From the sequence record PP400780: a stretch of 64,000 nt of DNA; one strand, 5' to 3'. A model generated the notes under the pieces. That model saw nothing but the letters and a program-made list of their open reading frames with translations, was not told the origin of the DNA and made no database searches. Below are positions 15,612 to 22,181 of this stretch, one piece after another. Numbering within the stretch: position 1 is the first letter of the stretch; each line of letters opens with the position of its first letter. The position numbers and the translations under genes are program-made. The stretch is from Escherichia phage FL18.

Positions 15612-15685
15612 AGGCCCTGTAGCTCAATGGTTAGCAGCAGTCCCCTCATAAGGGAAAGGTTACCAGTTCGAATCTGGTCTGGGTC
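15612..15685 (+). tRNA. tRNA with anticodon CAT (Ile2/Met-type), no encoded CCA
   Basis: manual cloverleaf: anticodon loop ctCATaa, T-arm accag-ttcgaat-ctggt; acceptor stem has one mismatch and one G-U, D-stem weak. Confidence 0.5.
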
Positions 15686-15691
15686 ATATAT

Positions 15692-15768
15692 TCGAGGCAT
15701 AGCTCAATTGTATAGAGCAACGGATTTCTAATCCGTAGGTTGAAGGTTAGAATCCTTCTGCCTCGACC
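15692..15768 (+). tRNA. tRNA-Arg (anticodon TCT), CCA encoded
   Basis: manual cloverleaf with perfect 7-bp acceptor stem cgaggca/tgcctcg, D gctc/gagc, anticodon loop ttTCTaa, T-arm gaagg-ttagaat-ccttc, CCA. Confidence 0.85.
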
Positions 15769-15769
15769 A

Positions 15770-18382: not shown

Positions 18383-18405
18383 GAGGACTCCGGTCCTCCT
18401 TTTGG
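18383..18405 (+). terminator. intrinsic terminator (ggaggac-tccg-gtcctcc + TTTT)
   Basis: seen in sequence. Confidence 0.55.
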
Positions 18406-18422
18406 ATAATAAAGGAGTTAAC

Positions 18423-19025
18423 ATGCGAAACCAAAATAATGATATTGACTCAATGTTCGAAGAGTTCCGAGATAAGGTAAATCCACCTACGTCTTTAGTT
18501 GATTCATTACGATATGTTGCAACTGGACGTAAATGGTACTGGTCGTCTTCTTATGAGACCACCGAGAAAACGGCTAGCCATAGCAGAAAATCTTTATTAG
18601 CCCCAGGTATTATGATTCATGATATCGGAGCTATTGCTAAACTAGTTGCAGACCATGATATTAGATTCACTGATTTCGTTGCTACTACATGGTCTGTTTG
18701 TTGTTTAAACACCGAATTGGAATATATCAGTGAACGTTCAGATGATTACATAGGCTTTAGAGACAAGCTTTTAAGGTCTAACATGTTTTATATTGATACA
18801 GAAGTTCTAGTCAATAATAAAAAATACTACTTCACTTTAATCGTCGATTCTGAAACTATGTATGAAGGCAAGCCTTTGCTTAAGAGAGTTGATGCTTTAA
18901 GTGCTATTGATGCGCTTTATGAAACTATGGTTGTTAGTCCTAATTTCACTAACAATTTAATCCTTGAGCAATTTATTATGGAATGTAGAGAATATGTCAA
19001 AGCCAACCCTGTACATGCCAATTAA
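18423..19025 (+). CDS. hypothetical protein (C-terminus contains FIMECR)
   Basis: 200 aa from ATG 18423 after AAAGGAG. Confidence 0.5.
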   Translation: MRNQNNDIDSMFEEFRDKVNPPTSLVDSLRYVATGRKWYWSSSYETTEKTASHSRKSLLAPGIMIHDIGAIAKLVADHDIRFTDFVATTWSVCCLNTELEYISERSDDYIGFRDKLLRSNMFYIDTEVLVNNKKYYFTLIVDSETMYEGKPLLKRVDALSAIDALYETMVVSPNFTNNLILEQFIMECREYVKANPVHAN

Positions 19026-19389
19026 GCCCTGGGCATACGAATACAAACGTAAATTAATCCCAAATGAAGTACTATTTGGCCCTATTTTAGCTTTAGCATT
19101 TTTAATCTTTATGATTATAGGAGCCGTTTTAGATTCTAGTGAAGTTATATCTTCTGATGCGGTGTTTTTACTTATTATACCTGGGTCGTTTATTGTGCCA
19201 TTTTTATTAATGCCTATTAACTGGGTGGGATATTGGTATCAAGGCCGTCATCACAGAGCTCGAGTTCGTGAGTGGAAAGTTCAGTGCGCAAAAGCCCAAG
19301 CTCAGTATGATGAAGCTGTTAAAAAGTATGAATATGAAGAAGCTATGGAATTCGTTAAGGAAATAAGATGCAAAAGCCTCAACTCTTAA
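19015..19389 (+). CDS. membrane protein
   Basis: hydrophobic segments; start uncertain (18994 or 19015). Confidence 0.4.
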   Translation: MPIKPWAYEYKRKLIPNEVLFGPILALAFLIFMIIGAVLDSSEVISSDAVFLLIIPGSFIVPFLLMPINWVGYWYQGRHHRARVREWKVQCAKAQAQYDEAVKKYEYEEAMEFVKEIRCKSLNS

Positions 19390-19727
19390 CCATATGGCCT
19401 TCTCTTGGTGAGAACATTCTAATTTTTATTATGAGTATTGGCATGGGATTTGCCTTTGGATTAGTTGGATTTCTTATTGACGGCGTTGTGTTAGGATTTA
19501 TAGGGAACACTGGTGGATTCACAGACCAATGGCAGGACTTACGGTATACCAAAGCCTTTGCATCCATCGCATCATTTTGTACTGTAGTCTATTTTTACTA
19601 CGATTTTATAAACCATAACAAGAAAAATAAAAAGGTTTACGCTTCTCAAATGATTAGTTATAATGAACTCCTAGCTAGACGTGAAAATGAAACAATCGAA
19701 AACTTTATTAAGGAATGTAGAAAATGA
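19368..19727 (+). CDS. membrane protein ending NFIKECRK
   Basis: 119 aa; SD AAGGA 7 nt upstream. Confidence 0.5.
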   Translation: MQKPQLLTIWPSLGENILIFIMSIGMGFAFGLVGFLIDGVVLGFIGNTGGFTDQWQDLRYTKAFASIASFCTVVYFYYDFINHNKKNKKVYASQMISYNELLARRENETIENFIKECRK

Positions 19728-20029
19728 GTAAGATTATTGAAATTAAAGTACCAGAGTTTAATGATGCCAAATCCGCTTCAGATGCAATTTATAAACTTCT
19801 GAATCAAGCTGAACGTATCGAAGAAGAAGCAACAAAGATCGCAGACCAATATGCCGTATCATTTTCTGTAGGTGATTATGGTAGCGGTCGTACTTATTAT
19901 CCTAAGGGTGAAATCGTATCCCAGTGGATGAAAAATGAAATTGAAAATAACGGTGGCTATGTTAAGCGTGAAGGTAATGGTTACGTTATTACTGAAGGTG
20001 CTTGGGTTTCGTCTTCTGCGTTGTGCTAA
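19724..20029 (+). CDS. small protein, WVSSSxxC-terminus family member 1
   Basis: 101 aa; ends GAWVSSSALC. Confidence 0.5.
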   Translation: MSKIIEIKVPEFNDAKSASDAIYKLLNQAERIEEEATKIADQYAVSFSVGDYGSGRTYYPKGEIVSQWMKNEIENNGGYVKREGNGYVITEGAWVSSSALC

Positions 20030-20038
20030 GGAATCATT

Positions 20039-20311
20039 ATGTCTAAAGAACAAACCGAACTGGCTGAAGCTGTAGCAAAAATCTATGCAGCTATTGAGGC
20101 TGCCAAAGAAATTGCTGATAAACAAAACACAACATTCGATTTGTACCCAGCTTATGGTATGGGTGGAACCTATCATTCACCAGGACATCTTAAAGCCGAT
20201 CTTGAACGTTGTACAAAAAACGGCTATGCTGAATGGGCTGACGTTTACCAATACGACTACAACCTGAGCCTCGAAACTGGTGGTTGGGTCGCATCTTCTC
20301 ACACTTGCTAA
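20039..20311 (+). CDS. small protein, WVSSSxxC-terminus family member 2
   Basis: 90 aa; ends GGWVASSHTC. Confidence 0.5.
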   Translation: MSKEQTELAEAVAKIYAAIEAAKEIADKQNTTFDLYPAYGMGGTYHSPGHLKADLERCTKNGYAEWADVYQYDYNLSLETGGWVASSHTC

Positions 20312-20320
20312 GGAAACAAT

Positions 20321-20518
20321 ATGTCTCGTGAATTAGATTGTGCTGTACGTACGGCAGTAGCTGCCCTGGAAAACCTGTTCCAAATTGCAACAGAAGAACG
20401 CGAAGAAGTTACATTATGGATTGAAGATAACGCAGGTCTGAATCTCCAGAACGCAATCTCATTATCAAATAATAGTATTACTGTTCAAGGCTGGGTATCA
20501 TCTAGTTATTCTTGCTAA
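20321..20518 (+). CDS. small protein, WVSSSxxC-terminus family member 3
   Basis: 65 aa; ends QGWVSSSYSC. Confidence 0.5.
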   Translation: MSRELDCAVRTAVAALENLFQIATEEREEVTLWIEDNAGLNLQNAISLSNNSITVQGWVSSSYSC

Positions 20519-20522
20519 AACA

Positions 20523-20560
20523 GTTTACAACAAGATAGGGCTATGTTATAGTAGTCCTAT
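20523..20560 (+). promoter_or_regulatory. PeSL
   Basis: GTTTACA + stem-loop tagggctatgttatagtagtcctat. Confidence 0.55.
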
Positions 20561-20580
20561 CAAATTAAATGGAGTCCACA

Positions 20581-20820
20581 ATGATTTATTACGAAAGTAT
20601 TGGAACCAAAGTGGTTGCTAAAACCATTACTCGTGAAAAGTTTGCAAAGATATTTGATATGCGTTATAAAAAATCTGAACACAAAGGCATCCGATTCGAA
20701 GATGCGCACTGTACAATTTGCCCTTATAATGAAGACATAAACGGTACAATCGTTCCATTGGTAGAAGCTTCACATGATGACCTTTGGGATGAATATAATA
20801 TCGCATGTCGTGAAATTTAA
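20581..20820 (+). CDS. hypothetical protein
   Basis: 79 aa from ATG 20581 after TGGAG. Confidence 0.45.
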   Translation: MIYYESIGTKVVAKTITREKFAKIFDMRYKKSEHKGIRFEDAHCTICPYNEDINGTIVPLVEASHDDLWDEYNIACREI

Positions 20821-21817: not shown

Positions 21818-21854
21818 GTTTACACAATTATAGGACTATGTTATAGTAGTCCTA
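21818..21854 (+). promoter_or_regulatory. PeSL
   Basis: GTTTACA + taggactatgttatagtagtccta. Confidence 0.55.
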
Positions 21855-21875: not shown

Positions 21876-22181
21876 ATGAAATTAGGCGAAACCAATCGAA
21901 TCGGTCTTTTTACAATATTTGCATCACCTTTTTACGTAGCTCTTTCTGTTGCAGTATTACAAAAGGCTTACAGTATGGATGGTGTTCCTGGTTTTGTATT
22001 CTTATCACCGTTTTTATTATTCGTCGGAGCTTTGTTATTATATGCCACGACTAGTTTCGACCATAACGTCTGGGTTAATTATAAATGTAAATTGTCTGAA
22101 GAAGAACACGCAGAAGCTCGTAAAAAAGCTATTGAATCTACCAATCTAGAAAATTTCATTAAAGAATGCCGAGGAAAATAA
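21876..22181 (+). CDS. membrane protein ending NFIKECRGK
   Basis: 101 aa, two hydrophobic helices. Confidence 0.5.
   Translation: MKLGETNRIGLFTIFASPFYVALSVAVLQKAYSMDGVPGFVFLSPFLLFVGALLLYATTSFDHNVWVNYKCKLSEEEHAEARKKAIESTNLENFIKECRGK

Follow-up and report, generated by a model that had tools for sequence, protein, structure and literature searches.

Why do three consecutive small genes of Escherichia phage FL18 close on the same short string of residues, with a cysteine placed directly before the stop codon? The question was raised by a 64,000-nucleotide stretch of sequence record PP400780 (hereafter the window), in which three open reading frames (ORFs), ORF1, ORF2 and ORF3, all terminate in W-V-[SA]-S-S-x-x-C (Table 1). 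Our analysis indicates that this ending is kept at the protein level and that the three genes belong to a conserved module together with a downstream gene encoding a DUF7277-DUF7275 nucleotidyltransferase. The answer that we hold to be somewhat probable is that the trio consists of small acidic phage proteins that partner this enzyme through their invariant tail, either as its substrate or as its regulator.

A preliminary description, made from the letters of the window, had given the lengths (101, 90 and 65 amino acids, aa), the coordinates and the common ending of the three ORFs, and all proved exact. According to a six-frame scan of the whole 64 kb, a terminal W-x-[SAT]-S-S is found in ORF1, ORF2 and ORF3 only, and the rough expectation for such a motif at an ORF end, computed from the amino-acid frequencies of the window itself, is 8e-9 per ORF and 4e-6 over its 523 ORFs. 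Hence, the shared ending is real and not due to chance. An internal KWYWSSSYE in e.5 was considered as an instance of the same motif and rejected, its spacing being different and its position non-terminal. The run from stop to next start, also noted previously, reads TGC TAA GGA AnC AnT ATG at both junctions, with the ATG nine bases past the stop codon of ORF1 and of ORF2 and a Shine-Dalgarno sequence overlapping that stop codon. Such an overlap is the usual layout for translational coupling.

These stop/Shine-Dalgarno/start junctions are near-identical in DNA (TGCTAAGGAAnCAnTATGTCT), which speaks for a view of the ending as a DNA-level scar, left by duplication or by the recombination junction that the preliminary description had proposed, if it is not a matter of chance or of a mis-called ORF pattern. 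The codons of the tails do not bear this out. Within the trio, valine is encoded by GTT, GTC and GTA, the position after it by TCG, GCA and TCA, and a further serine by TCT in two copies and AGT in the third. When 121 distinct DNA versions of W-x-[SA]-S-x3-C-stop from the related loci that were fetched are compared, the three serine positions use all six serine codons, of both the TCN and the AGY boxes, valine uses all four codons, and the terminal cysteine is TGC in 79 versions and TGT in 42. The preliminary description had named equal conservation of synonymous sites as the observation that would speak against a protein-level explanation; these sites were found to differ both within the trio and across the 121 versions, which rules out the recombination junction. 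Because synonymous codons vary while the residues stay, the ending is kept by selection on the protein. Chance is further opposed by the low expectation over the window and by the 185 diverged clusters of the family described below, so that a scar or an accident retains hardly any probability.

How far the kinship extends beyond the tail differs within the trio. ORF1 and ORF2 both match the phrog_899 profile (E 2e-22 and 3.5e-19, respectively), of which they cover only positions 134-221 out of 221, and 57 of their residues align by BLASTP, including a common YG-x-G-x-TY motif (GDYGSGRTYYP in ORF1, AYGMGGTYHSP in ORF2). ORF2 is a paralogue of ORF1. ORF3 matches another profile, phrog_4882 (E 1.7e-36), and is devoid of the YG-x-G-x-TY loop; when the profile of its orthologues was set against that of 38 ORF1/2-family sequences, hhalign aligned the last 13 residues only, with 92% probability. 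The earlier view that the three bodies are unrelated thus fails for ORF1 and ORF2, which are homologous, and stands for ORF3 at the limit of detection. Both PHROG families are listed as function unassigned.

The search for ORFs with the same C-terminus in other phages, suggested in the preliminary description, revealed a large family. An alignment-based protein search returned 65 relatives, and a full HMMER profile scan of 1.84 billion representative proteins returned 185 clusters at E<=1e-3. Nearly all clusters have lengths of 64-175 aa, and the last position of the profile falls on the last residue of the protein. An exact cysteine end was observed in 180 of the 189 members, this residue being the sole cysteine in 85 of them, and the median isoelectric point of the family is 4.4. 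Against the family hidden Markov model (HMM), ORF1 and ORF2 score E 1.9e-26 and 1e-25, and all three proteins of the trio fall under the definition used here, i.e., 60-175 aa with W-x-[SA]-S-(S)-x-x-C as the last residues. The consensus runs from an N-terminal helix ending in (E)A(E)xIAD through G(D/A)YG(S/M)G(R/G)TYYP and a variable acidic and aromatic linker to G-x-W-[VILM]-[SA]-S-S-x-x-C. In both family alignments, the tryptophan, two serines and the terminal cysteine never vary. Within the alignment of ORF1/2-type proteins without ORF3, the same is true of Y52, G53, G55 and Y58, and nearly so of T57; in the 36-sequence alignment that includes ORF3, the YG-x-G-x-TY loop residues are only nearly invariant. 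The spacing between tryptophan and cysteine varies, as illustrated by the endings WDSSSC, WVQSSC and WSSSNC. An AlphaFold2 model of ORF1 (predicted local distance difference test, pLDDT, 90.5) places a long helix (residues 15-43) against a small sheet, with W94-S96 in the last strand (residues 93-96) and the final residues in a short turn. Scans of ORF1, ORF2 and ORF3 with Pfam, NCBIfam and PADLOC gave nothing above noise, a fold search with the family matched no known fold, and sequence profile searches of the PDB with the small family and with the DUF7275 family returned low-complexity helical matches only. Among 185,579 bacterial and archaeal species genomes scanned, seven matches were obtained, all on metagenome-assembled contigs, five of which carry Cys-tailed ORFs; the module is therefore treated as phage-restricted at this sensitivity. 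Variants of the tail were also noticed within some proteins: elements resembling it (W-x-S-S-G-C, W-E-S-S-S-E-G-W...) are repeated inside the acidic linker of P0119, P0121, P0166 and P0178, loci L126 (2737-3150) and L127 (3413-3631) being listed with the members that have such internal elements, and a few neighbouring ORFs possess an internal W-x-x-S-G-x-C only, without terminal cysteine, e.g., ...SLWEASGSCSEWEE...GWNI.

What accompanies these proteins from phage to phage is a gene encoding a DUF7275 protein. The contigs of the first three distant relatives all showed one or more small genes and then DUF7275, and in every small-protein locus with enough downstream DNA the DUF7275 gene followed on the same strand at some 0.2-2 kb. 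L006, L009 and L043 alone lack it, and these contigs break off at most a few hundred bases from the small genes. In the window as well, the DUF7275 gene lies on the same strand as the trio and within a few kb. In the reverse direction, 70 of 80 viral loci retrieved through DUF7275 hold 1-6 family-HMM matches, always on the same strand as DUF7275 and, with one exception, upstream of it within ~3.9 kb, and, in five of the ten other loci, divergent ORFs that terminate in W-x-S-S-(x)-C lie upstream. After dereplication of the enzymes into 51 groups below 80% identity, with neighbours counted from -4.5 to +2.5 kb, a family member was present in 48 of the 51 groups. The next commonest neighbour, itself another Cys-ended small family, occurs in 13 groups, and all others in 11 or fewer. 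This linkage extends over Straboviridae, Phapecoctavirus, Otagovirus, Menderavirus, Acinetobacter Twarogvirinae, Acinetobacter Lazarusvirus, jumbo phages and metagenomic contigs that are not T4-like, one of which (L008) carries a fused primase-helicase. In Menderavirus, the small genes stand downstream of the DUF7275 gene. ORF3-type proteins keep the linkage even though they have only the tail in common with the rest of the family. The small genes and the DUF7277-DUF7275 gene thus form a module conserved across phage families.

The enzyme itself is the 318-aa product of the gene that starts 331 nucleotides past ORF3. Its N-terminal domain bears a Pol-beta nucleotidyltransferase signature, G6-S7 plus D25-x-D27, kept in all homologues compared, while E69 is invariant within the type A subtype only. 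The elements that define the Pol-beta superfamily, hG[GS], DxD/E, a third acidic residue and an alpha/beta nucleotidyltransferase (NTase) fold, were all found. The 318-aa protein is a Pol-beta-fold nucleotidyltransferase, its fold being closest to that of the MenT/AbiEii toxins and the ANT/Lnu adenylyltransferases. The DUF1814/AbiEii profile gave no match, and Pfam returned DUF7275 and DUF7277 only, even at E values up to 5. Numerous polar residues of the helical C-terminal domain are invariant, among them Cys272 in KVCTSITSGWFR. The invariant H128, H194-D195 and H198 of this domain brought an HD domain to mind, which is retained as a conjecture only, since neither Pfam nor PDB sequences supported it. 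DUF7275 was counted in 733 of the roughly 50,700 phage genomes deposited, and its homologues fall into 2774 clusters.

Not all DUF7275 enzymes are accompanied by Cys-tailed proteins. Those of Smoothie (Gordonia), Atuin (Arthrobacter), Vibrio K408 and KVP40 stand beside 1-4 tandem copies of another small family (phrog_13591, 18295, 8206 and 16046) characterized by the motif GGEGxG...G[WY]Y[AS]S[WY]xG. In these four enzymes, the position of Cys272 is occupied by isoleucine, whereas cysteine is present in all five examined enzymes that have Cys-tailed partners, a correlation drawn from a small sample. This replacement of the Cys-tailed family by an unrelated one beside the Ile272 enzymes suggests a general dependence of the enzyme on a small partner, and the terminal cysteine of the partner and Cys272 of the enzyme may be functionally coupled.

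These observations lead to the following proposal. Each small protein would bind the 318-aa enzyme, and the invariant tail would be the element that the enzyme recognizes. The tail is put forward as recognition or acceptor element because it is the sole feature common to ORF1/2-type and ORF3-type proteins. The small protein could be a substrate, in which case a serine of the tail, or a tyrosine or threonine of the loop, would receive the nucleotide, or it could regulate or plug the enzyme, as MenA1 does with MenT1. Indeed, the short protein MenA1 uses its N-terminal helix to control MenT1 (PMC10435456, PMC11375011). Since a lone cysteine forms no internal disulfide or zinc site, the terminal cysteine must then act between molecules, and it may pair with Cys272 of the enzyme through a disulfide bond or by sharing a metal. 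Four elements of this proposal are inferred: a physical contact of the partners, the part played by the tail, the nucleotidylylation and the Cys-Cys contact. The target of the module could be host tRNA, a host defence or the metabolism of the phage. The idea of a modification or targeting tag, voiced in the preliminary description, fits the observations, given the extreme C-terminal position of the motif, its being the sole element in common and the linkage to a nucleotidyltransferase gene. Several observations weigh against the proposed partnership. DSS3_PM1 keeps Cys272 yet pairs with the other type of small protein; L064 and the group L084/85/87/112 keep it with no small partner nearby; and since the tryptophan and valine of the tail lie in a predicted beta strand, the motif may be in part structural. 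Moreover, the patterns by which the reverse set was retrieved include KVC[TS]SITS, which contains Cys272, so that the invariance of this residue in pattern-retrieved loci is ascertainment and was not counted as evidence.

Modules made of a nucleotidyltransferase and a small partner are already known, whereas the partner family described here and its terminal motif are new. The closest likeness is to MenT/AbiEii with MenA/AbiEi, above all MenT1/MenA1, in which an NTase fold is also combined with a small partner. Following this likeness, the locus could be read as a toxin-antitoxin-like pair, in which the MenT-like enzyme would be toxic, for instance toward host tRNA 3' ends during takeover, and the small proteins would serve as inhibitors or timers whose tail occludes the active site. 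We regard this reading, which is one particular form of the proposed partnership, as rather unlikely. Instead of a single antitoxin, each enzyme has 1-6 diversified paralogues with an invariant Cys-ended tail, which is unusual for antitoxins; the enzyme falls outside DUF1814/AbiEii by sequence and has an extra helical domain of ~200 residues (DUF7275); the small genes of Menderavirus are downstream, and in the window a promoter-like site parts the trio from the enzyme gene. The module also differs from the MenT/AbiEii systems in residing in lytic phage genomes only, the scan of species genomes having yielded no more than the seven metagenome-contig matches. At the other end of the proposal, the Cys-tailed proteins could be substrates or carriers whose Ser/Cys tail is covalently processed, e.g., nucleotidylylated, by the MenT-like enzyme, as a new phage modification system with arrays of paralogues charged for host targets or defences; to this elaborate form we give a low probability. 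Precedents for a small substrate exist, as GlnD acts on PII, and MNT on HEPN in type VII toxin-antitoxin systems, both nucleotidylylating their small partner on a tyrosine. By analogy with these well-established pairs of an enzyme and its small protein substrate, the nearly invariant YG-x-G-x-TY(Y) loop of ORF1/2-type proteins and the Ser-rich tails could accept a nucleotide. The small proteins are not homologous to PII or HEPN, however, and the ORF3 type is without the tyrosine loop; regarding the HEPN Rx4-6H motif, ORF1 has no histidine and neither ORF2 nor ORF3 contains R-x4-6-H.

Other readings would dispense with the enzyme. The small proteins could act alone as host-takeover or anti-defence binders, the cysteine binding a metal or a host target or bridging subunits, and the enzyme would be a syntenic passenger. 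They are indeed small, acidic, diversifying accessory proteins of an early region, as is typical of genes at the phage-host interface, and the terminal cysteine, sole cysteine in 85 of the 189 members, must there act between molecules. The linkage nonetheless survives across phage families despite a variable spacing and a switch of gene order, no other neighbour is conserved, and an unrelated small family substitutes beside the enzymes that lack Cys272. Such a substitution of one small family by another speaks for a dependence of the enzyme on a small partner. The passenger reading is regarded as improbable. Tandem arrays of precursor-like genes, whose products vary in the middle and are invariant at the end, are also reminiscent of ribosomally synthesized and post-translationally modified peptides (RiPPs), whose Ser-Ser-x-x-Cys-COOH would be dehydrated, cyclised or decarboxylated. 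In epidermin-type lanthipeptides, known for their lanthionine/AviCys chemistry, S-x-x-C at the C-terminus forms aminovinyl-cysteine (AviCys), and the spacing at the free C-terminus of the trio equals, by analogy, that which forms AviCys. Still, the proteins of the trio type are acidic and have a compact predicted fold (the ORF1 model mentioned above), with the tail partly in a beta strand, instead of an unstructured leader and core; conserved residues are spread along the body, the spacing between tryptophan and cysteine is not constant, and no dehydratase, cyclase, LanD-type flavoprotein, radical-SAM or YcaO gene was found among the called genes and neighbour clusters, all of which makes a RiPP-like origin very unlikely. 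Finally, ThiS/MoaD (-GG) and Pup (-GGQ/E) are likewise small proteins defined by their last residues and linked to one dedicated enzyme. Such ubiquitin-like, sulfur-carrier or Pup modifiers have a beta-grasp or Pup-type architecture and an E1-like or PafA-like enzyme, whereas the trio ends in cysteine and gave no fold match, and its linked enzyme has an NTase fold.

The carriers of the DUF7277-DUF7275 enzyme include RB69 and therapeutic-candidate phages of E. coli, Klebsiella, Acinetobacter, Pseudomonas and Stenotrophomonas. No function has been described in the searched literature for the small proteins or for the enzyme, and neither a solved relative nor a paper came up for them; the RB69 ORF names, the PHROG identifiers and DUF7275/7277 retrieved nothing, and the single paper found with RB69 and "nucleotidyltransferase" concerns a different gene, gp52:53. 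The strict linkage of the enzyme to an array of tail-tagged proteins provides a hypothesis that is testable genetically in RB69-type phages. If the enzyme acts on tRNA as MenT does, or modifies the small proteins, this would be a new mechanism of host takeover or counter-defence; and if the tail is a recognition tag, it would be a new short motif that directs proteins to a nucleotidyltransferase.

Table 1. Positions of the trio, its partner gene and surrounding features in the window, and of the other small family in related loci.
Feature	Location	Strand	Remarks
ORF1	19724..20029	+	101 aa; ends ...EGAWVSSSALC*, stop TAA; intact form of RB69ORF139c plus 138c
ORF2	20039..20311	+	90 aa; ends ...TGGWVASSHTC*, stop TAA; RB69ORF137c
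ORF3	20321..20518	+	65 aa; ends ...VQGWVSSSYSC*, stop TAA; RB69ORF136c
ORF1 tail codons	20003..20026	+	W-V-S-S-S-A-L-C
ORF2 tail codons	20285..20308	+	W-V-A-S-S-H-T-C
ORF3 tail codons	20492..20515	+	W-V-S-S-S-Y-S-C
Promoter-like site	20524..20552	+	TTTACA-17-TATAGT with TG extension; consensus match only; between ORF3 and the 83-aa ORF
Intervening 83-aa ORF	20569..20820	+	RB69ORF135c; phrog_3723
Partner gene, 318 aa	20849..21805	+	DUF7277 plus DUF7275; RB69ORF134c
Twin promoter-like site	21819-21847		identical to the site above; consensus match only
RB69ORF133c	21876-22181		101-aa ORF 3' of the enzyme gene; ends ...LENFIKECRGK
e.3	19368-19727		ends ...IENFIKECRK
e.4	18964-19389		ends ...EFVKEIRCK
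e.5	18402-19025		internal KWYWSSSYE
tRNA-Met and tRNA-Arg	15613-15769		~4 kb upstream of the trio
Other small family	L124 4600-5800		
Other small family	L125 4621-6043		
Other small family	L136 4620-4985		
Other small family	L139 3360-3656		
Other small family	L135 5217-5609		

As to its setting, the window is an RB69-like Mosigvirus, the region sharing 98.5% identity with Mosigvirus phages (e.g., vB_Eco_F27) and 98.2% with RB69. The RB69 counterparts of the trio sit between e.3 and e.2 on the early-gene strand; in T4, e.3 directly abuts e.2 and the trio-bearing block is absent from that site. In the RB69 record AY303349 (L001 5425-5731), ORF1 is split in two (71 and 33 aa) and has the tail WVSSPALC, whereas the window and most relatives have one intact ORF of 101 aa ending in WVSSSALC. 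It looks as if the old record contained a frameshift or a sequencing error, unless the pseudogene is real. Because no third neighbour family occurs in more than 13 of the 51 enzyme groups, the 83-aa ORF between ORF3 and the enzyme gene is lineage-specific and lies outside the conserved module. The promoter-like site that precedes this ORF has its twin just past the enzyme gene, and such sites would put the 83-aa gene and the enzyme gene in one early transcription unit, apart from the trio.

The module is flanked by ORFs that share a second C-terminal motif. The endings of e.3 and RB69ORF133c are closely similar, that of e.4 is looser, and endings like that of e.3 (NFISRCR, NFIRMCRK and EFITECRGK) were found in L064. 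The ORFs of the e.3, RB69ORF133c and e.4 type appear to be paralogous small predicted membrane proteins. In several GenBank records (F27, L002 2695-3090; JK36, JK42 and JK45), the e.4 homologue is named "sulfurtransferase", a label for which nothing was seen here in support in this predicted small membrane protein. Distant contigs bearing the module also place it near a Gad2-domain protein, Rnl1 plus PNK, or NAMPT/NAD-salvage genes (anti-defence or repair; L003 105-1220, L003 2689-5478, L008 6323-7990 and L136 216-3169), and none of these neighbours is conserved across groups. Lastly, the DUF7275 genes of Gordonia phage Smoothie and Arthrobacter phage Atuin are located inside or beside a phage tRNA gene cluster (L124 5850-8066; L125 3151-3806 and 6082-6155), and the window holds two tRNA genes upstream of the trio. 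Given the MenT-like fold, this may reflect a connection with tRNA, and it may also be a coincidence.

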